Assembly (NCBI GenBank): GCA_040757115.1
Contig: JBFLYA010000015.1
Coordinates: forward strand, 1-32,333
Direction of reading: 5' to 3'
DNA: 32,333 nucleotides
DNA from: a bacterium
GTDB taxonomy: Bacteria; UBA9089; CG2-30-40-21; SBAY01
This document shows positions 5,452 to 31,910 of the stretch, in pieces; the first letter of the stretch is position 1; each line of letters opens with the position of its first letter. Both the position numbers and the translations under genes were made by a program. The notes under the pieces were generated by a model that saw nothing but the letters and a program-made list of their open reading frames with translations, was not told the origin of the DNA and made no database searches.

Positions 5452-5804
5452 GTAACTATTCACCCTGTAGGAAAGTAAGAGAGTAGGAAAGTAGGAAAGG
5501 GGAGACATTGTCCCCAGAAGAGGAATACCGTGCACATCCTTTATCCCTTTCCTACTACCTACTTGCCTACTATTTCCTCCTGAAAGTAGGAAAGTAGGAG
5601 AGTAGGGAAGTAAGAAAGGTATTATCTAATTCTATCTAAAGATCTTAATTATCTGCCAGATTTTCAATCCATTTGGGATATATCTGAAGAAGTGAGTAGG
5701 ATGCTTATAGGTTTAATCAAATCAATTAAGAGTAAAATAGTATGAAGTATTTTCCCCCTTTCCTACTTCCTACTACCTACTTGCTTGGTATGCTGAATAG
5801 TTAC
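5452..5804. mobile_element. MITE-like element with 11-bp TIRs and internal 8-mer (GTAGGAAA) inverted tandem repeats
   Basis: GTAACTATTCA (5452-5462) and TGAATAGTTAC (5794-5804); flanks AAACTAAA/AAAGGAAA look like a decayed 8-bp TSD. Confidence 0.75.
5617..5745 (+). pseudogene. C-terminal remnant of a four-helix-bundle (23S rRNA IVP-like) protein
   Basis: Manual translation RYYLILSKDLNYLPDFQSIWDISEEVSRMLIGLIKSIKSKIV*; no start codon. Confidence 0.75.
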
Positions 5805-5812
5805 AAAGGAAA

Positions 5813-7597
5813 TTAACCCTCCACTAAGTGATTTCTTGCTGTATTGAACAAATGAGGGAATTTCTTATACATTATTTCCTTGAGGACATTTTCTACTTCA
5901 TTGACGCTGTGCAATTTAAGTACTTTTTGCACTAATTCTTTTGCCTCAATAAGGCTTATTGACCGAATGACCTCTTTTACCTTCGGGATAGAGCTACTGG
6001 ACATACTTAATTCATCTATTCCCATCCCGACTAAAATAATCGTAAATAATGGGTCACCAGCCATCTCACCACACATACCTGCCCATATTCCTTGATTATG
6101 TGCAGATTCGATGGTATAATTAATAGAGCGTAAAATAGCCGGATGCGCCGGGTTGTAAAGATGAGCTAATTGTTCATTAACTCTATCTATAGCAATGGTA
6201 TACTGAATTAAATCATTTGTGCCAATGCTAAAAAAATCTACTTCTTTGGCTAAAATATCTGAAATCATTACCGCTGAAGGCGTTTCAATCATTATGCCAA
6301 GTTCTATGTCCGGAGCAAAACATACCTTTTCTGTCTTTAATTCCTGTTTTACCTCTTCAATGATTTTTTTTGTAGCTCGTAATTCTTCTAATTCTGAAAT
6401 CATTGGAAACATTATTCTTAATTTACCAAAGTTACTGGCTCGAAATAGGGCTCTTATTTGTGTTTTAAACATATTCTTATATCTTAAACATAATCGGATT
6501 GCTCGCAATCCAAGGAAAGGATTTACTTCGGTTGGAGTTCCTAAGTAAGATAAATATTTATCTCCGCCTACATCTAATGTTCTTATCGTCACAGGATATG
6601 GTTTCATTTGAGATATTACTTGTTGATATGCCTTTAATTGTTCATCTTCATCTGGTAATTCAGTTCTATCCAGATACAAAAATTCAGTGCGGTATAATCC
6701 AATTCCCTCTGCCCCTTCATCCTTTACAACATCAATTTCCTCTGGTAGTTCAATATTAGCCGCAATGTCAACTCTATAACCATCATTCGTTTGACCTGGT
6801 AAGTCTTTTAGCCAGGCTAAGCCCGCTTTAAATTCATCAAATATCTTTTTCTTTTTCTCATATTCGTTAATCGTCGCTTTATCTGGATTAACAATAACAA
6901 TACCATGACTACCATCAATAATTAGAATATCTCCGGATTTAACTCGAAATGTTATATCTCTTAATCCAACTACGGCTGGGATTTCTAAAGCACGCGCCAT
7001 AATGGCGGTATGCGAGGTTTGACCACCTATATCTGTCGCAAAACCCATTATCTTCCCTTTATACATATGCGAGGTATCTGATGGTGTTAAATTATGGGCA
7101 ACAACAATAACATCTTCCCTTAATTCTTGTAGACTAATATTAGTAGTTCCAACTAAATTTTCTAATATTCTCCGACCTATGTCATAAATATCTACTACTC
7201 GTTCTCGCATATAGTCATCTTCTAATCCAGCGATATTCTCAGTAATCATCTGCAGAACTTCCCACAAGGCATATTCTACATTGATATATTCTTTTCTTAT
7301 TCTTTCAGAAACCTCAAAGATAAGTAATGGGTCTTTTAAAATTAATAAATGAGCCTCAAAGATATTCGAATATTCTTCACCCATCTCTTCATGAACCTTT
7401 TCTTTAATCTTTACAATTTCTTTTTCAGTGCGTCCAACTGCCTCTTTAAAACTATTAATTTGATTTTCTACTTCTTCTTCAGTAATCTTTCTCTGGGTTA
7501 TCTTGAGCTTAGTTATATCTAATAAATAAGCCTTGCCGATAACAATCCCTGGTGAGGCAATTACGCCTTTAAGTTTTAACATCGATGAAGTTATCAT
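5813..7597 (-). CDS. ptsI: phosphoenolpyruvate-protein phosphotransferase (PTS enzyme I)
   Basis: GGQTSHTAIMAR phospho-His motif, GIGLYRTEF, FFSIGTNDL, GMCGEMAGD. Confidence 0.98.
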   Translation of the reverse strand: MITSSMLKLKGVIASPGIVIGKAYLLDITKLKITQRKITEEEVENQINSFKEAVGRTEKEIVKIKEKVHEEMGEEYSNIFEAHLLILKDPLLIFEVSERIRKEYINVEYALWEVLQMITENIAGLEDDYMRERVVDIYDIGRRILENLVGTTNISLQELREDVIVVAHNLTPSDTSHMYKGKIMGFATDIGGQTSHTAIMARALEIPAVVGLRDITFRVKSGDILIIDGSHGIVIVNPDKATINEYEKKKKIFDEFKAGLAWLKDLPGQTNDGYRVDIAANIELPEEIDVVKDEGAEGIGLYRTEFLYLDRTELPDEDEQLKAYQQVISQMKPYPVTIRTLDVGGDKYLSYLGTPTEVNPFLGLRAIRLCLRYKNMFKTQIRALFRASNFGKLRIMFPMISELEELRATKKIIEEVKQELKTEKVCFAPDIELGIMIETPSAVMISDILAKEVDFFSIGTNDLIQYTIAIDRVNEQLAHLYNPAHPAILRSINYTIESAHNQGIWAGMCGEMAGDPLFTIILVGMGIDELSMSSSSIPKVKEVIRSISLIEAKELVQKVLKLHSVNEVENVLKEIMYKKFPHLFNTARNHLVEG

Positions 7598-7881
7598 TCT
7601 TTTTCTCCAAATTTATCTTCGAATAATTTTGTTAATTTTTCTACCGCCTCTATAGCATCTTCGCCACGGGCATTGATTATTATTTGACTACCTTTGCCTG
7701 CATCTAAAGTTCCCACACTTAAAATACTTTTGCCATTTCTCCATCCTGAACCTGAGTTATTAACTTTTTTTACTTTAATCACTGATTGAAATTTAGTGGC
7801 AGCCTGGACGAAAATAACCGCCGCCCGGAGGTGTAACCCTAATTTATTTTCAAGTGTAACTATTTTTTCTACTGAATTCAT
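7594..7881 (-). CDS. ptsH: phosphocarrier protein HPr
   Basis: NKLGLHLRAA (His15 motif), NGKSIL (Ser46), ARGEDA. Confidence 0.92.
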   Translation of the reverse strand: MNSVEKIVTLENKLGLHLRAAVIFVQAATKFQSVIKVKKVNNSGSGWRNGKSILSVGTLDAGKGSQIIINARGEDAIEAVEKLTKLFEDKFGEKE

Positions 7882-8714
7882 AAAATAATCCTGGTTAAAT
7901 ATTTAATTTCAGAATTATAAGACCACATTCCCATTGTTTTAAAATAAACTAATAAACTTCCTATTCCCAATATGAACAAAAAGATAATCAAGGGATTGAT
8001 TCTTATTCTAATGCCAATGCCTGTGGCAATTATAATTATCAATGATGCTATTCCAATAAAATATTCTTCAACCACATCAGTTTTTATTAAACGGGCATTA
8101 AACCAGCAAAGAATACTACTTAATATCCCCAAAAAAGTTATGCCGATAATATTGAATATAGATTTAATCCGCTGAAAAGAGATTTTACTGATTTTTTCTA
8201 TCAGGTTTTCTTTAAGGCAATATCCTTTTTTTATGCCGATAAATCTCAGATATAAAGGCAAAATATTATAAATAATCAAGAAAAAGATTATTCCCCAGAT
8301 AGGGGATTTTTGTATCCAGATTAAGGTTGATGTTATCATCATTCCCAAAAGGGAGATTAAAGGGCGATATGTTGCCCAAAGCAAACTATCTCCAATTCCA
8401 GCCAGAGGCGATGTCATATATGATTTCAAAACCGAGATGTCACCCGGAGTTAATCCTTCTTTACCTTTTGATAGTTCTTCTTCTTTTGAAATAATTAAGC
8501 CACTAATTAATGTAATAAAATATGGATGCGTATTGATAAATTCTAAGTGTCGAAGAATAACTTCTTTTTGTGCTCGAGGCTGTGAATACAATTTTTTTAT
8601 CATTGGGAATATCGTATAAACAAATCCTACACTTTGCATCCGCTCAAAATTGAATATTGACTGCACAAATAATGACCTGAAAAATATCTTGAAAATATCA
8701 CCTTTAGATAGCAT
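7878..8714 (-). CDS. PTS mannose/fructose/sorbose family IID component
   Basis: FNFERMQSVGF, HLEFINTHPY, SPLAGIGDSL. Confidence 0.93.
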   Translation of the reverse strand: MLSKGDIFKIFFRSLFVQSIFNFERMQSVGFVYTIFPMIKKLYSQPRAQKEVILRHLEFINTHPYFITLISGLIISKEEELSKGKEGLTPGDISVLKSYMTSPLAGIGDSLLWATYRPLISLLGMMITSTLIWIQKSPIWGIIFFLIIYNILPLYLRFIGIKKGYCLKENLIEKISKISFQRIKSIFNIIGITFLGILSSILCWFNARLIKTDVVEEYFIGIASLIIIIATGIGIRIRINPLIIFLFILGIGSLLVYFKTMGMWSYNSEIKYLTRIIL

Positions 8715-8718
8715 AGAT

Positions 8719-9441
8719 TTAGCCTTTTATAAAAATTACAATACTTGTTAAAATAAAACCAACCACAAAATAAATAAAATACTTTCGGACACCTAAAACA
8801 CTTATTGTTACACCACAACCAAATAATAAAAGTAATGATAAAATAATGGTTAAATCAAATTTAGTGGCTAAAAGATTTGTTATTATTTTAACGGCAAATA
8901 GTCCCACGCTTATAGTCCCAATCAAGATTAAGGAATGGATAATAAAACTCATTCCTATACTTATCCAATTTATCCATTCTATCATCTGTAAATTTCCTAT
9001 TTTAATGTTAGCCTCTAATTTGTGTAAAAGGGTAATATTAACCTTTTCAAACAGGAAAAAATCAATCCATCTGGAGAAAAAACCAACAATGATTCCAAAG
9101 CACATAGATAAAATTAAAAAACTTACTTTTTCTAACAAATTAAGTGGTAGAGTAATACTACCAATACAGACTAATGAAGTAGTTGTGATACTACTTATCG
9201 CGGCATTTGGTGGAATAATAGTGCCTACTTGAAAGGTATTTATCCAGACTAATTCTAAAACAACTCCAATGATTGCCCCTAAATATAATCCTTCTTGAGG
9301 CGAGCCTTGCAATGACCCCAGTATTAATCCTAAAAAAGGCGAAACAACCAATGGTCTGGAAACCATTGTTTGGGCAATACAATAAGTATCTAAATTTATT
9401 AATCCACCAATTAATCCGGCTAATAAGATTTGAACATACAT
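8719..9441 (-). CDS. PTS mannose/fructose/sorbose family IIC component
   Basis: QTMVSRPLV, GVVLELVWI, GTIIPPN; start moved to ATG 9441 because the ORF-track start lies in the promoter. Confidence 0.88.
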   Translation of the reverse strand: MYVQILLAGLIGGLINLDTYCIAQTMVSRPLVVSPFLGLILGSLQGSPQEGLYLGAIIGVVLELVWINTFQVGTIIPPNAAISSITTTSLVCIGSITLPLNLLEKVSFLILSMCFGIIVGFFSRWIDFFLFEKVNITLLHKLEANIKIGNLQMIEWINWISIGMSFIIHSLILIGTISVGLFAVKIITNLLATKFDLTIILSLLLLFGCGVTISVLGVRKYFIYFVVGFILTSIVIFIKG

Positions 9442-9466
9442 CGCAAAATTTCTACCTTTTTGTAAT

Positions 9467-9495
9467 AGTTTATCACATTTTTTGCCAAAAGTCAA
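9467..9495 (-). promoter_or_regulatory. sigma70-type promoter of the PTS operon
   Basis: TTGACT-17 nt-TAAACT with extended TGn. Confidence 0.6.
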
Positions 9496-9505
9496 AGGAT
9501 TTTTT

Positions 9506-9759
9506 GTAACCGTTCACCGCAGAGACACAGAGACGCAGAGAAAAAATTAAAAACTATTTACCACATGCCTCATTCCATCACGGATTTTCATCAGAGCAAG
9601 CTTTTGAAAACCGACATATCATGATTGATTAACAAATTTGGTTTTGAGGTCCTATGTATTACTATGATTGCCTCAATAATCTTTTCTGTTGTCTGATTTA
9701 TTTCAATCTCTTCTCTGTTCCTCTGCGTCTCTGCGGTGAATTACTATCTGAACGGTTAC
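9506..9759. mobile_element. MITE-like element with 11-bp TIRs, perfect 8-bp TSD and 9-mer inverted repeats
   Basis: GTAACCGTTCA (9506-9516) and TGAACGGTTAC (9749-9759); GATTTTTT duplicated at 9498-9505 and 9760-9767; inner arms CACCGCAGAGACACAGAG / CTCTGCGTCTCTGCGGTG. Confidence 0.85.
9548..9707 (-). pseudogene. internally deleted GxxExxY-family gene remnant
   Basis: IEINQTTEKIIEAIIVIHRTSKPNLL resembles the family N-terminus (EINxITEKIIGAAIEVHRxLGPGLL) and IRDGMRHVVNSF* resembles its C-terminus. Confidence 0.7.
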
Positions 9760-9803
9760 GATTTTTTTAGGGTGTAGGTTTGATAACGAACTATCCCCAC
9801 TTT

Positions 9804-10355
9804 TTACATCCTCAATTCTACTATCTCATCTCCATCTTTTAAAATTACTTTATCTTCAAATACCTCATCTATCTTTACTCCCTGGATGTAATCTCCTCTT
9901 TTGAGGAAATATTGATGTGCTTTGTTTCCATCTTGAATTATTGCTGTCCCACTACTTTCATCAAACACTACTCCTATTAATCTTAAATTACCTACTCGCT
10001 TCTCTAAAGGAATTTTAAGCGGTATATCTGGTGGTGGCGATTGTGGCGGTAATTGAGGTGGTGGTGGCGGAGATATTACGGGTAAATTAGGTAATGACTG
10101 CTGAAATACTTTTTCTTTTACCTCTTCCTCCACTAAAGGAACAAATAAATATCGACTACCAATTAAATTACTATAATACGAATAGGGTTTAGAAGGAGGT
10201 AAATTTATAGCGTTTAACTTTATATCCCCTCTTTTTCTACTGATTACTAATTCTTTTTTGGGCAAAGAAAAGTAGATAATAATTCCAATACAGAGAATTA
10301 AATTTGCTAAATATAAAATTTTATTTGCAAAACTTATCTTATTTAAAGGTAACAT
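9804..10355 (-). CDS. GspC/PilP-like T2SS inner-membrane protein
   Basis: N-terminal TM, Pro-rich linker, HR-like domain LRLIGVV...AIIQD...LKRGDYIQGVKIDEVFEDKVIL. Confidence 0.7.
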   Translation of the reverse strand: MLPLNKISFANKILYLANLILCIGIIIYFSLPKKELVISRKRGDIKLNAINLPPSKPYSYYSNLIGSRYLFVPLVEEEVKEKVFQQSLPNLPVISPPPPPQLPPQSPPPDIPLKIPLEKRVGNLRLIGVVFDESSGTAIIQDGNKAHQYFLKRGDYIQGVKIDEVFEDKVILKDGDEIVELRM

Positions 10356-10359
10356 TGTG

Positions 10360-10887
10360 TTACTCCTCTAAGATTCTACTTATAACCAACTGGGCAGATA
10401 AGACACCCTTAGTTCCACTTTTTGCTTTTAGTCTTAAAGATGAAACCTTTAGAAGTTTAGATGATAATTGATAGATAAATTTTGTCAGGTGATTTATTTC
10501 CCCTTCTGCCTCAACTACGATGATAAGTCTTTTATAAAATCCCATATCCTTAACTATTCCCGGCTTAATATCTACTAAATAAAGGTTTGAAGCCTTAGAT
10601 ATAGATTCTATCACTTTTAAAGTATCCGCTAATTCCTCTTCCAGAGAACCTTTTATCTGTAATGTCCTGGAGAATTTGTTATATACCGTAGAGATTTTAT
10701 CCTTTTGGCTAATAATTCGTCTATTTTTTAAAAGTAGTATTTCCTTAGATAATACCTCGTTGTTCAATTTGGACAAAAAATTATAGCCTGGTTCAAGTAG
10801 ATAAGTATATCCTGCATAACCAAGAATGACGGCAATGGTAATCCATAATAATTTCTTTTCTCTTTTGGTAAATTGTGAAAAAGTCAT
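10360..10887 (-). CDS. GspM/PilO-like protein
   Basis: TKREK followed by TM, coiled coil and ferredoxin-like EGEINHLTKFIYQL; ATGA overlap with upstream gene. Confidence 0.75.
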   Translation of the reverse strand: MTFSQFTKREKKLLWITIAVILGYAGYTYLLEPGYNFLSKLNNEVLSKEILLLKNRRIISQKDKISTVYNKFSRTLQIKGSLEEELADTLKVIESISKASNLYLVDIKPGIVKDMGFYKRLIIVVEAEGEINHLTKFIYQLSSKLLKVSSLRLKAKSGTKGVLSAQLVISRILEE

Positions 10888-12317: not shown

Positions 12318-12325
12318 TGTCTAAA

Positions 12326-14956: not shown

Positions 14957-14976
14957 ACCTCAGTCCTCCTATTTTT

Positions 14977-16233
14977 TTACTCTACTAAGATATTCATCTT
15001 AAAAATAGGTAATAGCATGGCAATAACAATAAATCCGACCATAAATCCCATAGCCAAAATCACTATTGGTTCTAATAATGAGGTGATTACTTTTATTGAC
15101 CTATCAAGTTCCTTTTCATAATTTGAGGCTATTTTTAATAATGCCTTTTCTAAAAAGCCACCTTCTTCGGAAATAGATACCATACTGACCATTAAAGATG
15201 AAAAAAACTCTTTGTCTATTAAACTATTCGCAAATCCCTTACCTTCATCGACTTGTTTATAAATTCTATCAATATCCTTTTTAAAAATTAAATTACCACT
15301 ATGACTACTAATTACCTTTAAAGCCTCTAATATGGACACGCCGTTTTTCAATAAAGTGCCTAAATTTAAACTGAATTTTAAAACCTCTACTTTTTTTATC
15401 ACCTCACCTATATAGGGTAATGACAACAAGAATTTATGGATAGTTAAACGACCTTTTTGAGTAGCAAGCATCCTTTTTATGGCAAAGATGACAATTATAA
15501 AAGAAGCGAATATCATCCACCAATATTTAGCCATAAAATTACTACTAAAGATTAAAATAAGGGTAGGAAATGGTAGATTTTGTCCTAAATCCTCAAACAT
15601 AGTTACTAACTTCGGGATAACAAAAGTCATCAGGAAACAAATGCTTATTATTCCTACCGCGACTAATAAACAAGGGTAAATTAATGCGGTAGATACCTTC
15701 ATCCTCAAATCTTCTATCCTTTCAAGATAATCTCCTGCCCTATCTAACACATGAGGTAACATACCTCCTGCCTCTCCAACCTTAATCATAGTTACTAAAA
15801 ATGCAGGGAATATTTTAGGGTATTTATTTAGGGCATCAGAGAATTTCATCCCTTGCTGAACATTTTTATTTACCTCCTCGATTATTATTTTAAATTGTTT
15901 ATTTTGGGTTTGTTGATATAATACGGATAAGGCTTTATTTAAAGGAAGTCCGCCTTCAAGTAAATCTGATATTTGTCTGGTAAACATAGTCACTTCCTTA
16001 TTATTTATCGGGTTAAATCGCCATAGTTCCTTCTGTTTTCTGTCCTCTGCTCTCTGCCCTCTGCCTTCTGCTCTCTGCTCTCTGCCCTCTGCCTTCTGTT
16101 CTTCCTGTATCAAAACAGGGAAATAACCCATTTTATCTAAGGTATCGACAACTATTTTTTGTGATTCAGCAACTATGTTACCTTCAAATATATTACCCGA
16201 TTTATCCTTTGCCTTATATACAAAGTTAGGCAT
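14977..16233 (-). CDS. gspF: T2SS inner-membrane platform protein GspF/PilC
   Basis: FTRQISDLL, GEAGGML, ALIYP, LLEP motifs. Confidence 0.95.
   Translation of the reverse strand: MPNFVYKAKDKSGNIFEGNIVAESQKIVVDTLDKMGYFPVLIQEEQKAEGREQRAEGRGQRAEDRKQKELWRFNPINNKEVTMFTRQISDLLEGGLPLNKALSVLYQQTQNKQFKIIIEEVNKNVQQGMKFSDALNKYPKIFPAFLVTMIKVGEAGGMLPHVLDRAGDYLERIEDLRMKVSTALIYPCLLVAVGIISICFLMTFVIPKLVTMFEDLGQNLPFPTLILIFSSNFMAKYWWMIFASFIIVIFAIKRMLATQKGRLTIHKFLLSLPYIGEVIKKVEVLKFSLNLGTLLKNGVSILEALKVISSHSGNLIFKKDIDRIYKQVDEGKGFANSLIDKEFFSSLMVSMVSISEEGGFLEKALLKIASNYEKELDRSIKVITSLLEPIVILAMGFMVGFIVIAMLLPIFKMNILVE
16032..16101. repeat. 10 x TCTGNYY heptamer tract, in frame within gspF
   Basis: Encodes EQKAEGREQRAEGRGQRAEDRKQK. 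Confidence 0.9.
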
Positions 16234-16277
16234 TCCTTCTCCTCAAATCAGAAGTCAGATTTTAAAGGTATTGTCAT

Positions 16278-16361
16278 TCTGTCCTCTGCCCTCTGCTCTC
16301 TGCTCTCTGCCCTCTGTCCTCTGTCCTCTGCCCTCTGCTCTCTGCCCTCTGACCTCTGTCC
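16278..16361. repeat. 12 x TCTGNYC heptamer tract between gspE and gspF
   Basis: Abuts the gspE stop codon; short opposite arm TCAGAAGTCAGA near 16248-16259. Confidence 0.92.
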
Positions 16362-17888
16362 TCACTGCTGTGTTATTCTTAATACCTCTAATTTATTTGT
16401 AATTCCTGCTTCTACCTTTTTCATTCCATCTTCAAGTAATGTCTTCATCCCTAATTCAACTGCCTTTTCTTTAATTTTATAAGTAGGAGATTGGTTTAAT
16501 ATTAACTCCCTTATCTCATCACTCATTAATAAAATCTCATAAACTCCTGTTCTCCCTTTATAACCTGTATATCTACACTCCTCACAGCCAAACTTCTGTC
16601 CTCTGTCTTCTGTCCTCTGCCCTCTGTCTCCTTCCTTACACCTCGGGCATATCTTCCTTACCAATCTTTGAGCAATAATCGCCTCAATAGAGGATGATAT
16701 CAAATAAGGTTCTATCTTCATATCCAGTAATCGGGCAATAGCTCCTGCGGCATCATTAGTATGTAAAGTAGAAAATACCAGATGTCCGGTCAATGCGGTT
16801 CTAATCGCCAATTCTGCTGTCTCTAAATCCCTTATTTCTCCTACCATCATTATATCCGGGTCATGTCTTAACATCGAGCGTAGTGCATTAGCAAAGGTAA
16901 AATCAATCTTTGGTAAAACTTGCATCTGGGTTATCCCTTTTATTTGATACTCAATTGGGTCTTCAATAGTGATTATATTCTTTTCAATAGAGTTGATTTT
17001 AGTCAAGCAGGCATACAAGGTAGTTGTTTTCCCGGAACCCGTTGGTCCTGTAACCAATATTATACCATGCGGCTGAGTTATTAATCGATTTATTTTTAAT
17101 AAATCCTCATCACATAACCCTAATTCTTCTAAGGTATATGGTTTTCTACTCAAAATTCTTATACTTACGCTCTCTCCAAAAGGTGTAGGAAGAACAGATA
17201 CCCGTAAATCATATTCATCTTTGCCTACCTTAATCTTTATCCTGCCATCCTGTGGAACTCTATGTTCTGCAATATTTAAATCTGCCATTACCTTTATCCT
17301 TGAGATAATTGCCTGGTGGAACTGGCTAATTTTAGCGGGTATAGGAATATTATAAAGTATGCTATCAATACGGTATCTTATGGTTAACTCTTTTTCATAA
17401 GGCTCAAAATGAATATCCGTAGCTCGGTCATTAATAGATTCTAATATAATTTCATTAACAAACTTAATTATCGATGGGTCTTTGGCATTATTACTTATAT
17501 CTTCAGATTCTTTTGTTTCGCTTGTAATTTCAAGTCTTGCTCCTTCAAAGTAGTCTCCTCTTGCCTTTATTCCTTCTATGGTTTCTGCCCCTATTCCATA
17601 GTATTTTTTAATTGCCTTCAATATATCTACTTCATTACTTAAAACAGGTTTTATTTCGTACTTTAAGAGGCGTTTTATGTCATCTAAGGTATGAATATCT
17701 GTGGGATTAGTCATAGCTACCGTGAGATAACTATCATTTAAAGATAGAGGTATAAGTTTATAATGTAAGGCAAATTTAGCGGAAACCTTCCTGATTGCCT
17801 TCGCATCTATATGAATATCCTGTAATTGCACATAAGGGATATCAGTTTCCACCAGATTCTCCTTTTCTTCTGATATAGATTGGTACAT
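16362..17888 (-). CDS. gspE: T2SS ATPase GspE/PilB
   Basis: Walker A GPTGSGKTT, TIEDPIEY, LRHDPD..MVGEIRD, STLHTND, CPRC...CEEC. Confidence 0.97.
   Translation of the reverse strand: MYQSISEEKENLVETDIPYVQLQDIHIDAKAIRKVSAKFALHYKLIPLSLNDSYLTVAMTNPTDIHTLDDIKRLLKYEIKPVLSNEVDILKAIKKYYGIGAETIEGIKARGDYFEGARLEITSETKESEDISNNAKDPSIIKFVNEIILESINDRATDIHFEPYEKELTIRYRIDSILYNIPIPAKISQFHQAIISRIKVMADLNIAEHRVPQDGRIKIKVGKDEYDLRVSVLPTPFGESVSIRILSRKPYTLEELGLCDEDLLKINRLITQPHGIILVTGPTGSGKTTTLYACLTKINSIEKNIITIEDPIEYQIKGITQMQVLPKIDFTFANALRSMLRHDPDIMMVGEIRDLETAELAIRTALTGHLVFSTLHTNDAAGAIARLLDMKIEPYLISSSIEAIIAQRLVRKICPRCKEGDRGQRTEDRGQKFGCEECRYTGYKGRTGVYEILLMSDEIRELILNQSPTYKIKEKAVELGMKTLLEDGMKKVEAGITNKLEVLRITQQ
16595..16629. 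repeat. 5 x TCTGYCY heptamer tract, in frame within gspE
   Basis: Encodes DRGQRTEDRGQK between the two CxxC motifs. Confidence 0.88.
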
Positions 17889-17919: not shown

Positions 17920-18179
17920 GTAGGGCAAGGCTTATGGTTTTTGCAAAATCAACTTCCACTTTTTTGGAATACCATAAAATAAATTAAAAATCAAACATCA
18001 AAATGTAAAATTACAAATCAAAAATCAAAATATTCTCCAGCTACTTTGTTAATTTACAAGTATTTTTGCATTTTGCATTGTAATTTTGATATTTGCATTT
18101 TGATATTTACATTAAAGTTCTTCTTGCTATCGCTCTCCCCAAAAGAGGAACCTATTTATGAAAAAGCAATTAGCCTTGC
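17920..18179. repeat. REP-like palindrome interrupted by a nested inverted-repeat module
   Basis: GTAGGGCAAGGCTT...TAGCCTTGC halves about 240 bp apart; inner AAATCAA / TTTGATA-type heptamer arms at about 17985-18110. Confidence 0.6.
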
Positions 18180-19974: not shown

Positions 19975-19980
19975 AAGTGC

Positions 19981-20552
19981 TTCTCCTGAAAATAGTTTTT
20001 TCACGCAAAGGACGCAAAGGTAATTTTGTCCTTATTTTTCTTTGTGGTCTTTGCGTGCTTGGCGTGAAACTTCCTTTCTCTTGAAAAATCGGACTTCTTT
20101 TCTGTTTTTTTATCTGCTCAATCCGCTAAATCCGCTTACTACTTATTTTCATCTTCATTTGTGCCCACTCACGGTGGGCATGAGCGTTTCCCCTGAAAAT
20201 AGTTAATTAGAGATTAGAGATTAGAGAATTAGAACCTGCACTCTTGCTAATCTCTAATCTCCAATCTCCAATCTCTATGCTCAATTTTCATCCCCCTTTG
20301 TGCCCACTCCCTGTGGGCATGACCGTTTCCCCTGAAAATAGTTTTTTCACGCAAAGGACGCAAAGGTAATTTTTCCCTTATTTTTCTTTGCGGTCTTTGC
20401 GTGCTTGGCGTGAAACTTCCCTTCTCCTGAAAATCGGGGTTCGGGGTTCGGATTTCGGGGGTAGGGGATTCTTTTATTCCCGAGCCCCGAGTCCCGAGCC
20501 CCTTAATTTTCATCCCACTTTGTGCCCCGCCAGGGCATGAGTGTTTCTCCTG
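19981..20552. repeat. array of five hairpin cassettes separated by TTCYCCTGAAAAT junctions
   Basis: Six junction copies, three copies of a 50-57-bp core, one cassette duplicated. Confidence 0.85.
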
Positions 20553-22820: not shown

Positions 22821-22952
22821 ACCTAACGATAAAGTTCAGGTGCGGAGGGGAGAATTACCACAAAAGTTTGATAGCAAGATAAAACTTTGAGAGACCACAA
22901 AACTCTGACCACGGCACAGTCCCCCGCCGTCAACTGCAACGCAGGGTTAGAC
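22821..22952 (-). mobile_element. integron attC recombination site (orphan)
   Basis: Minus strand reads R'' GTCTAAC, 5 nt, L'' GTTGCAGT TGACGG ... CCGCACCTGAAC, 6 nt, R' GTTAGGT; arms pair with two extrahelical bases. Confidence 0.75.
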
Positions 22953-23052
22953 AAAAGCTCTGATTCGCTGTCTTTTCCTTTTCCTCTGCCTCACCGAATT
23001 ATTGTGCATTCCACATTCACGGTTGACCCTAAAATATCTCCTTTTTATTTTC

Positions 23053-23126
23053 TCACACAAAGCCACAAAGAACACAAAGGTTTATTGTTTTATTCAATTC
23101 CTTTGTGACTTTGTGTCTCTGTGTGA
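23053..23126. repeat. 9-mer inverted tandem-repeat hairpin
   Basis: TCACACAAAGCCACAAAGAACACAAAG ... CTTTGTGACTTTGTGTCTCTGTGTGA. Confidence 0.85.
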
Positions 23127-23312
23127 TTATTTTTATTATTCTAATCAAATGAATATTCTTCTATTAGTGTAAATTGAAGGTTTTTTATACCAGTGAATGG
23201 AAATTTATTAATATCCCCACTGCCTATCTGCTTCTTTATATTCCCAAAGAATAATCAGTCTCTTTAGTGTCTTTAGTGTCTTTAAAAAAGTTAGATCCTC
23301 TCTTTGCTATTA

Positions 23313-23750: not shown

Positions 23751-23765
23751 TTTTATTTATTTTCC

Positions 23766-26700: not shown

Positions 26701-29700
26701 GGATCATTTATTGGGTCACTACCAGTGTAATTTAATATCCCCTTTGCTATCACTCTATCCAACTTATCATATCTATATTCTACCCAATTACCTGCCTTTT
26801 TCTGTTCGGCATCTCGACTAAACCTTAAATTGCCATTTAAGTCATATTGATACTCCCTCCTTCCACTGTCTAAATGGTCCACAGCAAGTAATCTATTCAA
26901 TGTGTCATAAGTATATTTAGTCTCATGGCCATCTTTGTCTTGAATTATAGTCAGGTTGTCTAATATATCATAGGTATAATTAGTAGTAAGATTATAAGTC
27001 TCTCCTTCGTCCGGAGAGTCTTCCTCTACTTTAACTAACCTACCTAATTTATCAAATGTAGTTCTCTTATAATGACCATTTTCATCTTTAGTGGTTACCA
27101 GATGGAATCCAGCATTATCATTCCTATGGGTAATAGTCACCACGCCAGTGGGCTCTGGATAGATAATCTTGTAAGTTCTAAATAATGAATCATAGTGATA
27201 TTCCGTATAGGTATTTGGTCCTTCTGATTCAATGTAAGGAGAATATTCCTTTTTTATCTTTCCAATCTCGTTATATTCAACCTTACTACATACACTTTCC
27301 CCTGAAGAGGTATAATTTATTGTAACATCAAGTAGTTCCTCACTTGCTGTGGAAACACATCCTTCCAGATATACCTTCCAGCGCAAGTATCTTTTAACTG
27401 GTGAATTAATAATTCCTACAAATTTACCATTTTGCCAGTGTCCCGTTACTTCCTGAGCTTTTGATTCCTCCCAGGTAAACTCACTCGTATCACTACTTTG
27501 GGTTTTAATTTTAATCGATATCATAGGCAGTCCGTGAAAATCTACATTTGCAGAAAAAGTCCCATAATTATGCAATGTAGAACCAAAATCAATCAATGGA
27601 GAAAGAAGTGAACCTAAAGAGACATAGATTAAACCACTAAGATTGAAAGAAAAAGAGGGATTTGAAGGGCCATGCCAGCCATCCCCATCCATATCTTCAA
27701 AAGCAAATGTCCTAAGAATTATCTTATTTGAATCTAGACTAACTAACCCACAATAATTTGAATCTTGACTTGACCACCATGGATTAGATGCACCAACGCC
27801 ATTAGAAGAATAACTTTTAATCTGGGGAGAAGATATAAAAGAGGGAAAGAAAACATATTCCATTGTATATTCATGCACATCTTGATTAGTCCACAGTCTC
27901 CCATCAAAAAACTGTTTATTTCGATGGCCACATACGCGTTCACTTGTTTTTCTAAGCCCACTCTGGGCTATTTCTTTGGTAACAATACTTCTTTTAACAG
28001 TTCCTGAATTGGTTATATCAATTCCTTCACCTGCACATCCCTTCCATTCTGTTTTATTGTTCCATGTCTTTGTGTGAGATATAATTGTATTTGTATCATT
28101 TGTTTTTGTTTTAGTTTTTATCAATTGCCCCAGTCCATTATAATATTTAGTGGTTTCTTTTTTTATTTCATTATTTATCTTTTCAGAGATGATAATCCTA
28201 TTCAAATCATCATCAGAGGAAAAGTTTCCATAATGATAACTATATTGAATAGTTGGAGAATCAAGGGTATCTTCTGGCTTTATTATTTTCTCTAATCTAC
28301 CAAAGATATTATATCTATAAATAGTCGAATTCCCATTAGCATCTGTTAAAGTATCTATATCTCCATTCTCATTATAATATGTATCTACATAATGTCCTAA
28401 GGCATTTTTAATACTGGTACAATAGGCATGTTTTAATTCACTGGCACTATTACTTCTTGGATTATCATTATCACCAAAATAGTAATAGGTAGAATTGCCA
28501 TTAGCATCCGTTTTTTGTAAAAGATTACCATAGGCGTCATAGTCAACATAAGTAGTAGTACATGTATTCTCTCCAGCATCATATTCTTTATCTCCATCTT
28601 TATCTAACCACCTATATTCTGACACTGGATATATCTGAATTCCTTCAGTATCATCAAAATCTTTATATAAAGTAATCCTTCTATTTGCTAATGTATAATT
28701 GTTAAGTTTTTGGTCTTGGATTGTTACTGTCCCTACTTGATTTATCATATGTTTATTTTTCATATCATCATAATATTGAAATGCATAGGTGTTTTGTGTT
28801 ACTCTATTTCCATCATTTCCATGTTCGGTCATAGTTCCCACTAAACCATTTATTGGATTATAGAGATAATTTATCTCTTGATATGTGCTTACGGTTCCAA
28901 TTGTAACATTTCCAGATGCAGACCAAGTAAAAACTACACCTTCTGGAGGGTTTGGATACCACTCTTGAATCCAATCTCCAGCAATATCGTATATATCCTT
29001 TAACACATAACATTTTGCTTTAAAACCATCTGTTCTATTTTCTATAACCTGCATTCCTCCCCAATAATTATTTGCACTAACAGATAGTTGTGGTGGTTCG
29101 TTAAAGGTTATACCATAGGAGACATCTACTATTGCCCAAACATTGTAGATAGCTAACTCAACCCACCAGATACTTACCTTTTTATTAGAGCGTTCTTCTT
29201 GAGCCCCTCTACTTCCGTTCTTACTTCCCGAAAGATATCTTGTTTCAATACTCTCTACCCCATTATATGCAGTTTTATAGGTATTTAATTTTGCCCAACC
29301 ACTGGTTAATTTTTCCTTTCCACCACTCCATGTAGCCTGGTCTTCAAAGGTATATTTATTTTCAACTATTTTAATCGCTTTATCTTCCTGGGTGTAATAA
29401 GTTATCTTTGTTAATAATCCCCGTCTATAATCCATATCATATTGCCATTCATCGCCTTCATTAGGATGGGTATAGGCATTTGTAAATTCATGAACACTAT
29501 ATCCAGAAGGTCTGGCTGTAGAATTATTAGAGTCATAGCCTGGAATGACAGTAACCTTACAGTAACCTACATAACTGTCAGCTTCATGACTACCAATATA
29601 AATTCTGTCATTAAGTGACTCACAAGGAGGAGGTTCTATAGGTGTAGCACCACTACTTTCTCCATAATTATTGGCATCTCCATCCCCTTCCTCTAAATCA

Positions 29701-31643
29701 TAACCCTTTACATTATATAGATATCTAACAATTTGTTTGTTTCCAAGACCATCTGAGATGGTTATCGTTTTTACCCTTATTCCACCCCCATATTGAGTTC
29801 TATAATCATTATCTATAACTCCCCATAATCCCTCATTTCTACCAGTTCCTGCCGCTTTATTTCCTACATGGGCGTATCTATCTGACTCATACTCCCATTC
29901 AATTGTTCCACCAGTAGGATAAATTACCTTTGTTAAAGACCATGCCTGAGGAATAATATTTTCCAGTCTACAACTGGAATTATGATTATCTATTGAACCA
30001 TTGGAATAATAATAACCCCAGCGATCCCATTTATACTTATCCCAGGTTGGATTTTGGGAATAATATTCAAATCTTGTTGGAGGTAAAGCATTACCTCCAT
30101 TTTTGCCTCCTCTACCATATTCTGTAATTTTTGATAAGGTTAACTTGCCTACAGGGGATTCAGGAGCACCAGAACATAACGGATTGGAATTATTATATTC
30201 GCAATAAATACTCTTAATAATCTCAGAAGAATTATTTTTATTATATAATTGTATTTCTGCTAACTTCATAGGAGGGTGGTTACTTCCATTAGAAGTTGCT
30301 ACAAAAGATGCTTTATGTGTAGGTGTTTCTATTGAAGTCAGATGAGCTAATTCTCTTTTGCCCCATGAGGAAAAATATGTTTTAAACCCTTTATCATTTC
30401 TACCTTCATATTCCCCTCCATCAGAGGGATTATGAAAATTATACTCACCATCAACTTGATAATTAAACTTAACCCAGTTACCTTTATCATCCCCACCATT
30501 ATCAGGAATTAAATCTCCATTACCATCAATATAATCTGGAGAAAGAATAGCTGTTAATAGCCATTTATATGGGTATGGGTCAAGGAATTCTGTTTTAAGC
30601 CTTCCTTTTGTATCTATATCATCTATAATTCCAGGTACTTTCCCCTCAAATCTTGTCTGCCACCCTCCAGATTTTACTAAGAGTGGTTGAGCATAAACAT
30701 ATTTGGTACCATCTTTTTCGGTAATAACAAATTTTTTTATCCCGTTAGAAATAGATGCAGACAATTCATACTCTATCCTTACAGCATCATCCACTTCAGA
30801 ATTAGAAGATGTTTGTCCACATGTACGTTGTAGATGGAACTTTCTACTATTAGGACTTCCACTTAATACCAATTTATTGCTCTTACCTATTCCTGAAAGA
30901 TAATATAAATCAGGTGTTGCTCCATCTCGAGGGTCTTCATCCTCTAAATTATGATGGTTGGTATATAAAAATCCACCATCTGAAAACTTTTGATCACGAA
31001 TATCTATATCTGTTTCTCCTACACTCACACTTCGACCAGAAACATAAGGTTTTATTTCAGTCCCATCATTATTACCCCAACTTACACTAAAACCCATTCC
31101 TCCACTAATAAAAAATTGGAAAATTCCCTCGATTATTTGTTCATACCACTTCCTGGGACCAACTTCTATTTGTCTAAAGAAGTGTACATTTTCTTTCCCT
31201 TTCCAGTAATCATCAGGCCAACTTACTACCTCTCTTGTAATAACTCCTGGACATAAATCAAATCCTAATCCTACCCACGATGCCATTTGATTGACTCTAA
31301 TTCCTGCCTTGTAAGTTAGTTCAACAGGATAATCTAATTCTCCTCGACCAGGTACTGTAAATAGTGGAATCTTCAGGTTCATATCGCCAGTATAAAGATC
31401 AACTGTAGATTCATCCAGACTAATACCCTTTGGAGTAAAATTATAGATTTCTGGTTCACTGCCAAAAACTACCTGAGTTCCTACTACCCATGTTGAGACA
31501 CAAATAAAGCAGGCAATTAATTTTAGCCTGCTTAAAAAACTTAAAACCCATTTTAACATCAATTCCCACCCTCCACTTAAAACTCCTTTCATTCCGTAAC
31601 CTCTCTCTCTCTTATACTTACAACTCTTATTTTGTTTTAACAT
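23766..31643 (-). CDS. giant Rhs/YD-repeat polymorphic toxin with C-terminal PD-(D/E)xK nuclease (Tox-REase-9-like)
   Basis: YD repeats; core GFTGKRFDEKTGLYYYGARYY and NPYAYGINNPLKYVDPDG; tip H...KEFRLPSGKKVDFID...IYELKPNN...QL..Y; start may be 31643, 31592 or 31559. Confidence 0.92.
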   Translation of the reverse strand: MLKQNKSCKYKRERGYGMKGVLSGGWELMLKWVLSFLSRLKLIACFICVSTWVVGTQVVFGSEPEIYNFTPKGISLDESTVDLYTGDMNLKIPLFTVPGRGELDYPVELTYKAGIRVNQMASWVGLGFDLCPGVITREVVSWPDDYWKGKENVHFFRQIEVGPRKWYEQIIEGIFQFFISGGMGFSVSWGNNDGTEIKPYVSGRSVSVGETDIDIRDQKFSDGGFLYTNHHNLEDEDPRDGATPDLYYLSGIGKSNKLVLSGSPNSRKFHLQRTCGQTSSNSEVDDAVRIEYELSASISNGIKKFVITEKDGTKYVYAQPLLVKSGGWQTRFEGKVPGIIDDIDTKGRLKTEFLDPYPYKWLLTAILSPDYIDGNGDLIPDNGGDDKGNWVKFNYQVDGEYNFHNPSDGGEYEGRNDKGFKTYFSSWGKRELAHLTSIETPTHKASFVATSNGSNHPPMKLAEIQLYNKNNSSEIIKSIYCEYNNSNPLCSGAPESPVGKLTLSKITEYGRGGKNGGNALPPTRFEYYSQNPTWDKYKWDRWGYYYSNGSIDNHNSSCRLENIIPQAWSLTKVIYPTGGTIEWEYESDRYAHVGNKAAGTGRNEGLWGVIDNDYRTQYGGGIRVKTITISDGLGNKQIVRYLYNVKGYDLEEGDGDANNYGESSGATPIEPPPCESLNDRIYIGSHEADSYVGYCKVTVIPGYDSNNSTARPSGYSVHEFTNAYTHPNEGDEWQYDMDYRRGLLTKITYYTQEDKAIKIVENKYTFEDQATWSGGKEKLTSGWAKLNTYKTAYNGVESIETRYLSGSKNGSRGAQEERSNKKVSIWWVELAIYNVWAIVDVSYGITFNEPPQLSVSANNYWGGMQVIENRTDGFKAKCYVLKDIYDIAGDWIQEWYPNPPEGVVFTWSASGNVTIGTVSTYQEINYLYNPINGLVGTMTEHGNDGNRVTQNTYAFQYYDDMKNKHMINQVGTVTIQDQKLNNYTLANRRITLYKDFDDTEGIQIYPVSEYRWLDKDGDKEYDAGENTCTTTYVDYDAYGNLLQKTDANGNSTYYYFGDNDNPRSNSASELKHAYCTSIKNALGHYVDTYYNENGDIDTLTDANGNSTIYRYNIFGRLEKIIKPEDTLDSPTIQYSYHYGNFSSDDDLNRIIISEKINNEIKKETTKYYNGLGQLIKTKTKTNDTNTIISHTKTWNNKTEWKGCAGEGIDITNSGTVKRSIVTKEIAQSGLRKTSERVCGHRNKQFFDGRLWTNQDVHEYTMEYVFFPSFISSPQIKSYSSNGVGASNPWWSSQDSNYCGLVSLDSNKIILRTFAFEDMDGDGWHGPSNPSFSFNLSGLIYVSLGSLLSPLIDFGSTLHNYGTFSANVDFHGLPMISIKIKTQSSDTSEFTWEESKAQEVTGHWQNGKFVGIINSPVKRYLRWKVYLEGCVSTASEELLDVTINYTSSGESVCSKVEYNEIGKIKKEYSPYIESEGPNTYTEYHYDSLFRTYKIIYPEPTGVVTITHRNDNAGFHLVTTKDENGHYKRTTFDKLGRLVKVEEDSPDEGETYNLTTNYTYDILDNLTIIQDKDGHETKYTYDTLNRLLAVDHLDSGRREYQYDLNGNLRFSRDAEQKKAGNWVEYRYDKLDRVIAKGILNYTGSDPINDPKVNNPQSSEDFIQKVSYTYDQGINGTGNRTNMIDDVGVTNYSYDRCNRLIQQRRKINGVGQTYTTTYHYNSAGNIDWIITPSNKKIIYSYNIFNRVDFIEVEGLNKIVEKYLYEPNGDISSITYNNQFITNYDYYPRGWMKKVTVVKTSPIFHRYYKYEPAGNLKEEYNELVQTNTPFVVYDYDSIDRLISIDYNPTSNLKIEYDYDEIGNRTWSRVQDSSGTSIRNYTYYASHPNRLISDNLYNYTYYDNGNLKSKSYNGITFTYLYDYENRLVEVNQDGKWLEGYVYDGDGKRVKKFTNDGTITLVALYHYNAGGEIIYEENFSTKTVQSVVLFKDNFETLPEPNVWTTTGLWHRAQGKGYNSNYSFAYNNGSNYNTGGRNSGILTSPTIDLTKVTTAKLRFWTRWQHESYSYGDYDNIKVEVWDGKSWNRIFYNDCNEGQASTNWHEELLDISAYAGKLIKVRFCFDTVDGWYNDYEGWYIDNVRVEPSSFNADFEKEEAPQDNLWLYDGLWNRSKTKNYSSQYCFAYNNGTNYDTGRNRNFGALTSPFIDLTTVNNATLKFKTRWQHESYSYGDYDNMRVEIYDGISWHRIFYNDCNEGPCYKDWHEESFDISPYTINNIKLKFSFDTVDGWYNDYEGWYIDDIEIITISEDFQQLKTIDITSLTPIDNIFYIHANEQVIARVEHPLPSTKYQTYYYHNDYLGSPRVITNSLDDNYTTQDYYPFGGKASPGSAYKIGFTGKRFDEKTGLYYYGARYYNSELGRFIISDPAIERVPSQRILREPQRLNPYAYGINNPLKYVDPDGEAAETVWDVTSLGVGVVEFAMAPSWIGAGAIIVDLGATFIPGVPGGAGVALKTARAGEKAAEKIGAALKAVKSGERGIANPKVAEAIAKGRAIHKLFKADEVLEGIRIKEFRLPSGKKVDFIDLEKKIIYELKPNNPSAIKLGEKQLQNYLKEVESLYGSGWKTILETY

Positions 31644-31692
31644 TTTTTAATACCCCCTTTTTCAAAAATAATAAAATAAAAAAGGTAATATC

Positions 31693-31910
31693 TGTGATTC
31701 AGACACTGGACATCAGACACAAGACTATAGACTCTATTTATGCAGGAAATTAGTGACATCTAGGAACTCATCCTCAAAACTTCACTCCCTGAATTTTTTC
31801 TAAGCCATACCTACAGAAGTATAGGCAGGTCTCCCACGCCTTCATTCTTCTGCAATTTCTGCCCGCTTTAGTCTGAAGTCTGATGTCTATAGTCTACTGT
31901 CTGAATCACA
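31693..31910. repeat. inverted-repeat module with CAGAC/TAGAC heptamer-like arms
   Basis: TGTGATTCAGAC (31693-31704) and GTCTGAATCACA (31899-31910) plus inner tandem units. Confidence 0.75.

Follow-up and report, generated by a model that had tools for sequence, protein, structure and literature searches.

The window analyzed here, a bacterial stretch of 32,333 nt (JBFLYA010000015.1), corresponds to contig C57 of a 4.32-Mb genome bin comprising 462 contigs with a G+C content of 36.8%, and it harbors 10-11 hairpin modules whose arms are built from short tandem repeats. We regard it as probable that these modules derive from small selfish stem-loop cassettes, that most of the copies have been gutted, and that the cassettes belong to two lineages and have in many cases been amplified in the host genome by IS66-type transposition. 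A complete cassette would consist of a gene of ~120 aa, apparently promoterless, bracketed by mirror-image arrays of 3-15 short tandem repeats. In one lineage the gene would encode a PF05635/TIGR02436 four-helix-bundle (4HB) protein, Avd-like and also named "23S rRNA IVS protein" (IVS, intervening sequence), between heptamer arms of free sequence, and in the other a PF13366/TIGR04256 GxxExxY nuclease between 8-10-mer arms built on the core C[AG]C[AG][AG]A[GT] (CRCRRAK). An IS66 transposase acting in trans would amplify the end-bearing cassettes as miniature inverted-repeat transposable elements (MITEs) with 8-bp target duplications, and internal deletion would then strip the gene, giving the gene-less hairpins that fill the spacers of the window. 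We infer further that the arms pair in read-through transcripts, so that an insertion into an operon spacer or the tip of an rRNA helix would do no harm, as in classical 23S rRNA intervening sequences, and that the stem probably creates an RNase III site releasing the cassette mRNA. The arms would change fast by slippage, gaining and losing units, and their complementarity would be kept by stem selection and/or by template switching between arms. The cassette class is widespread, is related to the short tandemly repeated repetitive (STRR) sequences and to rRNA intervening sequences, and is essentially undescribed: in the literature searched, which included few subscription journals, no description of tandem-repeat arms around PF05635 or PF13366 genes was found.

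Linkage of inverted tandem arrays to two gene families

Tandem Repeats Finder (TRF) returned 8279 rows for the host genome, which were reduced to 5834 arrays of period 5-12 covering 4.0% of the sequence and comprising 1765 distinct units; 2057 arrays had period 7, 1464 period 8, 867 period 9, and 734 period 10. The inverted architecture that a first-pass annotation had described for the window was recovered genome-wide, with an inverted partner (within 1.2 kb, score of at least 12) for 1047 of the 5672 arrays scanned, against 129 reverse-only, 275 complement-only, and 341 direct partners in the controls. Period 7 accounts for 511 of these 1047 modules, and loop lengths are bimodal, with 569 loops below 60 nt and a second group of 100-400 nt. 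Hairpins nested in the loops of other hairpins were also observed (e.g., C95:7300 and C13:33847), as in the case of a 10-mer ATAGAAATAG hairpin within GGAGATAA arms; these are two of the most frequent units of the genome (155 and 285 arrays).

Profile searches of the host genome yielded 27 PF05635 and 81 PF13366 hits (many of them fragments), none of which lies within the window. The proposed association of the modules with these two families was statistically supported, since 21 of the 27 PF05635 hits and 38 of the 81 PF13366 hits are located inside module loops, and the random controls were far lower (201 of 20,000 intervals of 300 nt and 432 of 20,000 intervals of 100 nt). By using hidden Markov models (HMMs) made from the genome's own intact copies, we detected gene remnants in 74 of the 448 loops of at least 60 nt (29 4HB and 46 GxxExxY), in comparison with 2 of 448 matched random segments; among loops of 300-450 nt, remnants were present in 36 of 69. 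Arms flank all of the ten best PF05635 genes, which were inspected individually, and the elements of a cassette follow the order arm, ribosome-binding site, ATG, open reading frame (ORF), stop codon, arm. BLAST clusters of the loop ORFs were not used, as they were joined by repeat-encoded low-complexity peptides.

The decay of individual cassettes was examined in a genome of the same genus (G008), whose genes are 95-99% identical to those of the host. In G008, the spacer between the GspF and GspE genes conserves both arms around an intact 123-aa PF05635 gene (G008:C766:6652-6966), and what is left in the same spacer of the window is a stub, followed by 18 nt and by one arm, which has other unit variants than its G008 counterpart and deviates from it in length by roughly one unit. 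The matching G008 spacer lacks the 243-nt repeat present in the window at 17931-18173, G008 carries at site 9506 another IS66-type MITE whose right junction is shared with that of the window, and an in-frame heptamer array in GspF is exactly 21 nt longer in the window than in G008. Arm turnover is fast between these near-identical genomes. A search for empty sites at three MITE loci against G008 produced no clean empty site, as one insertion was shared and two loci were rearranged. Copy families within the host genome have common truncation points (profile positions 51-117, 83-117, and 90-117), a feature typical of MITEs formed by internal deletion and then amplified in trans. The view that empty modules are decayed cassettes, already advanced in the first-pass annotation, held at least in the cases open to checking by the G008 comparison and the remnant HMMs.

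The arms fall into at least two types, namely free-sequence heptamers accompanying 4HB genes and CRCRRAK-core 8-10-mers accompanying GxxExxY genes. In the host genome, for which arm periods were taken from TRF (autocorrelation on whole arm alignments was set aside as too noisy), 20 of 28 loops with a 4HB remnant have period-7 arms and 43 of 45 loops with a GxxExxY remnant have arms of period 8-9 (Fisher p = 1.2e-9, from copies that are not independent). Outside the host genome, period 7 was recorded for 19 of 25 4HB arm pairs, and the 28 GxxExxY arm pairs exhibit periods 8, 9, and 10 in 7, 10, and 4 cases, respectively, no clear period in 7, and never period 7. A link between gene family and period length had been anticipated, and it takes the form of 4HB loops mostly at period 7 and GxxExxY loops at 8-9 in the host or 8-10 elsewhere. 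The CRCRRAK core, often preceded by TTCAC, occurs in at least two copies in 16 of the 28 GxxExxY arm pairs from other genomes versus none of the 25 4HB arm pairs. Its strand in the 5' arm relative to the gene was sense in 14 and flipped in 2 of these cases, and 11 versus 0 in the host, where the core was found in 224 of the 1047 modules, 215 of them of period 8-9. The suggestion that a single system blind to sequence acts on all modules could not be sustained in view of the two or more arm types, the conserved core, and the IS66 ends with target duplications; for the heptamer (4HB) class, structure and period may still be what is recognized.

The protein encoded at C460:8150-8503 reached 162.1 bits with TIGR04256 (cut-off 35). 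A structural model of GxxExxY (predicted local distance difference test score, pLDDT, 96) presents a PD-(D/E)xK nuclease fold, with Cas4, BglII, and Hjc as top matches at Z 6.4-7.7 and restriction-endonuclease-fold proteins at Z 5-7.7. All 26 GxxExxY sequences of an alignment have G21, E24, Y27, D64, E74, and K76 without exception, and D64-E74-K76 comprise the predicted catalytic triad of PD-(D/E)xK type. Fold searches with the model retrieved generic nuclease-fold matches only (Foldseek E of at least 3.5e-3; VIA Z up to 7.7) and no specific family, and a phmmer search of GxxExxY against PDB sequences gave no match. The 4HB protein scored 125.9 bits with TIGR02436 (cut-off 24) and matched PDB 2gsc at E 2e-24; with the Avd equivalog NF033474 it scored 27.7 bits, below the cut-off of 80.

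The terminal-repeat motif GTAACNNTTCA is present at 1182 sites of the host genome and forms 290 adjacent forward-reverse pairs within 2 kb, 164 of which are 200-300 nt long. An exact 8-bp flanking duplication borders 77 of 287 such pairs, with one mismatch in 12 more, and the same test at shifted offsets (-1, +1, +2, +3) returned 0 of 286. The ends of the IS66 type read GTAAC(C/T)(G/A)TTCA and GTAAGCGTTCA, and the same 15-nt ends (GTAACCGTTCAGGTA) delimit a DDE_Tnp_IS66 (PF03050) pseudogene at C198:3061-4623 (136.5 bits, two stops). According to PMC11946415, IS66 elements have terminal repeats starting with GTAAGCG and generate 8-bp direct repeats. Intact GxxExxY cassettes of the host are ordered as end, arm, ORF, arm, end, over ~480 nt. 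Because GTAACNNTTCA ends and 8-bp duplications coincide with the same repeat on the IS66 pseudogene, many copies in the host are MITEs mobilized in trans by ordinary sequence-specific transposition. Two candidate classes were discarded in the course of this analysis: an apparent 6-bp duplication class, from a search for 4-10 bp across all modules, proved to be the 8-bp IS66 class read at a shifted offset, and GTAAC..GTTAC pairs above 560 nt, considered as autonomous elements, were nearly all two elements flanking host genes, with the IS66 transposase in C198 only.

Among 25 genomes of the phylum, PF13366 was detected in 17 and PF05635 in 20. Outside the host genome, arms were found around 28 of the 42 GxxExxY and 25 of the 33 4HB genes tested. 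These counts include bins labeled Planctomycetota, Nitrospirales, and Hydrogenedentes, with arms at 5 of 10 genes, as well as named plasmids. On the plasmids, a 4HB gene with inverted heptamer arms was present in 5 of 8 cases (Anabaena sp. 90, Nostoc punctiforme, Nostoc ATCC 53789, Leptolyngbya BL0902, and Stanieria), and GxxExxY genes with arms were found in 3 of 6 (Bacteroides finegoldii, Bernardetia, and Sphingomonas), located between housekeeping genes such as fabD/fabG. Nostoc PCC 7120 has a one-sided array of TCTGCCC, a unit that also occurs in the window. Direct rather than inverted arrays surround the cargo gene in a Pseudanabaena galeata plasmid (L164; GCTAAAA x14 upstream and GCCAAAA x10 downstream), and in a Prevotella nigrescens plasmid (L173) ACAAATC-type arrays stand on both sides of it, likewise in direct orientation.

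Some 4HB cassettes of the host are situated inside CRISPR-cas loci (CRISPR, clustered regularly interspaced short palindromic repeats), at C226:2923-3237, C356:6810-7124, and C430:38447-38767. The C226 cassette is upstream of a Cas4-like ORF, assigned by sequence reading, and those of C356 and C430 are flanked by partial CRISPR-repeat-like sequence, which places hairpin modules at spacer positions. On the plasmids of Anabaena sp. 90 and Pseudanabaena galeata (L162 and L164), the 4HB gene lies between cas6 and cas4. In a figure legend of PMC10910872, "23S rRNA IVP" is listed as newly associated with CRISPR adaptation modules, and this association fits both the cas6-4HB-cas4 order of these plasmids and the host cassettes beside CRISPR repeats. 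Insertion of cassettes between cas genes or beside arrays may account for the CRISPR-associated score of the family in large screens.

Proposed pairing of the arms and alternative explanations

The 23S rRNA gene of the host (G000:C423:9709-13122) spans 3414 nt in comparison with a model of 2925 positions, an excess of ~490 nt, and at least four inserts were seen in the alignment, after model positions ~228 (77 nt), 282, 312, and 583 (at least 70 nt). Two further hairpins with tandem arms, TTTATAGAG x4 and AGTGAGGA x3.6, are located at C423:11618-11712 and 10838-10922, their rRNA positions being estimated by arithmetic. One of them folds at -26.1 kcal/mol in the rRNA sense, with six G:U pairs, versus -12.2 in antisense, and the other at -27.0 versus -22.6 kcal/mol. 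We read these as module-type hairpins at one, possibly two, insertion sites of the host 23S rRNA. As reported in PMC11270868 and PMC10053308, PF05635 is the protein family of rRNA insertions, with ORFs lying within them. In the cassettes the ribosome-binding site follows the arm so closely that a promoter would not fit between them, and the cargo is generally co-oriented with its surroundings: with the upstream neighbor in 24 of 27 and the downstream neighbor in 21 of 21 arm-bearing cassettes of other genomes, and with its neighbors in 8 of 8 host cassettes without IS66 ends.

Several observations weigh against the cassette reading as a whole. Of the 448 loops that reach 60 nt or more, 374 yielded no remnant, for which reason the descent of most gene-less modules from cassettes is suggested by shared arm type only. 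Since only 152 of the 1047 modules lie within a strictly defined IS66-type pair, most modules would have been moved by something else or would be immobile. The baseline of co-orientation is already 83% (1596 of 1914 adjacent ORF pairs in the host), which makes the excess modest. Regarding the RNA stem, G:U-compatible mismatches in 299 modules between co-oriented ORFs divide into 179 and 178 by orientation, and in gene-bearing cassettes a bias was significant only in the host (50 vs 25), whose copies are not independent, and not in other genomes (62 vs 48). The direct arrays of L164 and L173 are left unexplained by a stem model, and the cross-phylum CRCRRAK core points to sequence-specific recognition, for which a plain stem model has no need.

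The conserved core is the starting point of an alternative in which the arms are putative iterons that the protein of the cassette itself would recognize in duplex form, and the hairpin potential is a side effect. The GxxExxY nuclease would then bind CRCRRAK at both ends and cut, so that the cassette could be excised or could home into gene-less hairpins of the matching type, and a pentameric four-helix-bundle protein would bind the heptamer-periodic arms. This agrees with the persistence of the core, often with a TTCAC...GTGAA stem base, while the proteins diverge to ~40% identity, with its presence in GxxExxY and not in 4HB arm pairs, its preferred orientation, the invariant residues and modeled nuclease fold of GxxExxY, the abundance of gene-less copies with CRCRRAK arms, and the even distribution of G:U mismatches over the two orientations across most modules. 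Conserved orientation and motif are, however, equally explicable by plain co-inheritance, no common sequence motif is found in the 4HB arms, and the truncated copies spread with IS66 ends and 8-bp duplications, for which a DDE transposase suffices without any cargo protein. The need of the rRNA hairpin for G:U pairs points instead to RNA pairing, and we consider the iteron explanation unlikely. A bolder proposal, which we advance only tentatively and hold to be doubtful, is that both proteins are specific partners of their own arms (GxxExxY through cutting at CRCRRAK, a pentameric Avd-like bundle through heptamer stems), so that the cassettes would be minimal self-contained mobile or homing units. 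If true, a single ancient cross-phylum class would have left its fossils in STRR, in rRNA intervening sequences that bear ORFs, and in the low-complexity ORFs annotated by the thousand as "hypothetical" in genome bins.

The free variation of the 4HB heptamer arms, which nonetheless keep their complementarity and mostly period 7, and the nested hairpins, as expected were loops insertion targets, are what would speak for one mobility or RNA-processing system acting on all modules through stem structure and period, whatever the sequence. That explanation is very unlikely in our estimate, given that there are two distinct arm types each tied to its own gene family, that IS66 ends are conserved and accompanied by target duplications, that several unrelated end types occur among the families of the window, and that the GxxExxY arm core is conserved across phyla. 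We also give little credence to the arms being neutral by-products of slippage and template switching in imperfect palindromes, with the genes there by chance or the hairpins acting as host terminator or stability elements. Such an origin would accommodate the differences in array copy number between near-identical genomes, the 1765 distinct units, the existence of solo and direct arrays (including the 341 direct partners and the Pseudanabaena arrays, direct on both sides), stem mismatches rich in transversions (580 vs 357 transitions), and the transcript-stability roles proposed for STRR in PMC2670836. Against it stand the link to two gene families, each having a period and a motif of its own, which recurs in no fewer than six phyla, the arms that abut the ribosome-binding site and the stop codon, and the gene-less copies that are dispersed multicopy elements with target duplications. 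Selfish stem-loop cassettes of two lineages, mostly gutted, are the reading that we retain for the modules described below.

Modules and neighboring genes of the window

The window modules were located by TRF and an inverted-repeat search, followed by direct sequence reading. All of the at least ten modules reported in the first-pass annotation were recovered at or near their original positions, and several of its more specific statements needed to be narrowed. The arrangement of arm, loop, and complementary arm holds for most modules, with the exception of 16246-16361 (one arm plus an 11-nt stub) and 20108-20139 (a half module). Unit sequences are unrelated in the heptamer class only, as four modules (9506-9759, 19981-20092, 20331-20425, and 23053-23126) have the CRCRRAK core in common; by this core criterion, these four are of the GxxExxY type and the remaining ones heptamer- or 4HB-type. 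Loops had been described as empty or occupied by decayed genes of the two families, and a remnant can be recognized in only two of them: a 4HB match at 5614-5742 (E 1e-4) in one and, in the other, a weak match to the GxxExxY N-terminus at 9594-9740 (E 0.1); a third case was identified via a relative. All modules but one belong to dispersed multicopy families with 26-405 non-self BLAST hits in the genome, and together they occupy the spacers between the cas/CRISPR, phosphotransferase system (PTS), secretion, and RHS genes. When seven window hairpins were folded, six showed z values of -4.1 to -6.3 relative to dinucleotide shuffles, none of 200 shuffles being as stable, and the seventh, which is AT-rich, showed z -2.2, with 6 of 200 shuffles folding equally well. 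The possibility that the modules form a CRISPR array, understood as identical direct repeats of 25-40 nt with unique spacers between them, was rejected on account of their units of 7-10 nt, the lack of spacers, and the presence of inverted partners.

At the left of the window, cas1 (838-1818) and cas2 (1784-2086) precede a CRISPR array at 2173-5230 (repeat GTTTTATCTGAACCATGTGGGATATAAAG; a run of 100 N at 4363-4462), and the first cassette begins ~220 nt past the last CRISPR repeat. This cassette is a composite IS66-type element at 5452..5804, with ends GTAACTATTCA (5452-5462) and TGAATAGTTAC (5794-5804) forming a 353-nt forward-reverse pair without an intact target duplication; it has 91 non-self BLAST hits, including copies in C234, C223, and C11 at 93-97% identity. 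Inside it are two GTAGGAAA-unit hairpins, for which the inverted-repeat search returned arms at 5482-5500/5538-5556 and 5584-5604/5748-5768. Hairpin A (5467..5575) has arms at ~5467-5500 and 5538-5575, built of the 8-nt unit GTAGGAAA, and a loop of ~37 nt without a gene (dG -40.2 kcal/mol, z -4.1). Hairpin B (5582..5782) has arms at 5582-5619 and 5748-5782, and its loop contains the C-terminal remnant of a PF05635/TIGR02436 four-helix-bundle gene on the plus strand (5614..5742; profile positions 72-103 of 104, E 1.1e-4 with the HMM from the genome's own copies). Cassettes that are intact and have the arms and ends of hairpin B occur at C409:15766 and C407:15566.

A PTS operon follows on the minus strand (5813-9495), and next to it lies a 254-nt IS66-type MITE at 9506..9759, with ends GTAACCGTTCA and TGAACGGTTAC and an 8-bp target duplication, GATTTTTT, at 9498-9505 and 9760-9767. 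Its arms (9513-9552/9701-9740; 40 nt, 83% match) are of the GxxExxY type with unit CGCAGAGA, and the weak GxxExxY N-terminal remnant at 9594-9740 is on the minus strand. This family has the 405 non-self hits mentioned above as the maximum, and the same ends and arms surround intact GxxExxY genes at C460:8150 and C34:8657. Within the window, only this module and that at 5452-5804 are of the IS66 type; the others represent further repeat families with their own ends, such as CTGTGATTCAGAC at 31692-31910.

The type II secretion/type IV pilus-like operon (minus strand, 9804-20004) includes a GspE whose nearest relatives are from Candidatus Omnitrophota bins, at identities of up to 59%. The decayed four-helix-bundle cassette in this operon (16246..16363, minus strand) consists of the arm stub CAGAAGTCAGA (16246-16260), 18 nt, and TCTGYCC x12 (16278-16363). 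The in-frame heptamer array of the GspF-like gene (16032..16102, minus strand) translates as EGREQRAEGRGQRAED and similar peptides, and similar in-frame arrays are present at 16595-16636 in the GspE-like gene, within its C-terminal cysteine cluster, and at 11461-11504 in a PilM/N-like gene. These three arrays come in multiples of 21 nt and match the arm of the neighboring cassette in unit family and orientation. The 243-nt dispersed repeat at 17931..18173 has AT-rich heptamer arms (17980-18030/18064-18114; 51 nt, 73% match) and 175 non-self hits with identities reaching 99%.

Beyond this operon, modules succeed one another between 19981 and 20552. A gene-less GxxExxY-type hairpin module at 19981..20092 (hairpin 20000-20068, z -4.65) has arms of the form TTCAC GCAAAGGA CGCAAAGG and is bounded by CCTGAAAA motifs. 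The half module at 20108..20139 retains one arm of ATCCGCTAA-type 9-mers, a unit that forms full hairpins elsewhere in the genome (C55 and C389). An ATTAGAG heptamer hairpin with linker at 20192..20345 (hairpin 20206-20277, arms 20206-20227/20251-20272 with 91% match, z -6.07, 117 hits) ends in a conserved linker of ~65 nt terminating in CCCCTGAAAATAG. The second ACGCAAAGG hairpin module, at 20331..20425 (hairpin 20346-20406, arms 20348-20365/20386-20403 with 89% match, z -5.99), is 96% identical to 19985-20079, and a TCGGGGT/CCCGAGC heptamer hairpin with a further linker copy occupies 20415..20552 (hairpin 20434-20502, TRF arrays paired at 20434-20460/20479-20502, dG -47.6 kcal/mol, z -5.39). 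Here and throughout the genome, modules are chained head to tail via the ~65-nt linker, which has a small palindrome of its own (GTGCCCAC...GTGGGCAT) and terminates in CCCCTGAAAA, a motif also found just upstream of the ribosome-binding site of the secretin gene. In this linker-chained class (linker end CCTGAAAA), an array starts within 25 nt after 102 of 171 TCTCCTGAAAA sites versus 741 of 20,000 random positions, and the chaining suggests repeated site-specific insertion.

Two genes of no assigned function lie between the secretion operon and the RHS gene. The module at 22850..23144 belongs to a larger dispersed repeat, which extends leftward past 22850; it has CACAAAG-type 8-9-mer arms (hairpin 23053-23126, TRF arrays paired at 23055-23079/23101-23123, z -6.29) and 121 hits, and a related copy in C77 matches GxxExxY only weakly, at E 0.002 and with 20.1 bits, less than the family cut-off. 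At 23257-23284 there is a solo AGTGTCTTT x3 array without an inverted partner and with 0 BLAST hits elsewhere in the genome. The RHS/YD-repeat gene (23766-31643; 2625 aa) and an ORF of 145 aa (23313-23750) have the layout of a polymorphic toxin with its immunity gene. Downstream, a 219-nt MITE-like element at 31692..31910 has ends CTGTGATTCAGAC...GTCTGAATCACAG, heptamer-like arms (31693-31733/31870-31910, 78% match), and 53 hits, with a 9-bp duplication in 1 of the 3 copies shown. A 137-nt MITE at 31988-32124 is bounded by terminal inverted repeats of 25 nt (CAGAAATTCTCGGTG...) and lacks tandem arms; since its copies elsewhere bear 9-bp target duplications, a different transposase family seems to be active as well.

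Relation to known repeats and intervening sequences

To our knowledge, STRR have been used for fingerprinting for decades with their origin unexplained, and PF05635 and PF13366 are very large families of no known function. Joining the repeats and the genes as one cassette across phyla yields a concrete, testable model for both puzzles, as it predicts binding targets for the proteins, cut sites in transcripts, and the mode of repeat spread. Such a cassette class would also explain the poor assembly of genomes of this kind (462 contigs and 4% short arrays in the host), the repeat-encoded peptides called by annotation pipelines, the in-frame 21-nt insertions in conserved genes, and the showing of "23S rRNA IVS protein" as CRISPR-associated in large screens.

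With IS66 MITEs, the copies of the host have in common ends starting with GTAA(C/G)CG, the 8-bp duplication, lengths of 200-300 nt, hundreds of copies, and a cognate DDE_Tnp_IS66 gene, but their interior is a tandem-armed stem-loop with or without a small non-transposase gene, and the likeness extends to 152 of the 1047 modules only. REPINs, their associated RAYT genes (REP-associated tyrosine transposases; REP, repetitive extragenic palindromic), and bacterial interspersed mosaic elements are likewise hairpin-forming dispersed repeats in hundreds of copies, with a small gene flanked by inverted copies. RAYT belongs to the HUH (IS200/IS605-like) transposases, and REP sequences show conservation inside one genome, whereas the cargo described here is 4HB or PD-(D/E)xK, and the arms are tandem arrays of variable units. 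Avd of diversity-generating retroelements has the same four-helix-bundle fold as the 4HB cargo, with a distant sequence similarity that falls below the equivalog cut-off; no reverse transcriptase was noticed next to the cassettes, although no search aimed at one was made.

Intervening sequences of 23S rRNA, which in their classical form are excised by RNase III, resemble the cassettes in having the same protein family and a gene in the loop of a long stem, and the host 23S rRNA itself has tandem-arm hairpins. The cassettes differ in being located also in operon spacers, CRISPR loci, and MITEs, and in having tandem-repeat arms; the rRNA copies of the host are gene-less. As for STRR, the founding paper is said to be that of Mazel et al. 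in 1990. They are described in PMC2670836 as usually 7-bp repeats, hairpin-capable, and of unknown function. The host modules are similarly made of ~7-bp tandem units, intergenic, dispersed, and hairpin-forming, and in plasmids of Nostoc, Anabaena, and Stanieria such arrays constitute the inverted arms of 4HB genes. In contrast, the term was coined for heterocystous cyanobacteria and the host is a Candidatus Omnitrophota bin, and STRR appear in the searched literature as repeats only, with no cargo gene, no 8-10-mer GxxExxY class, no IS66 ends, and no reports from outside cyanobacteria. The cassette class seems to explain these heptamer repeats of cyanobacteria.

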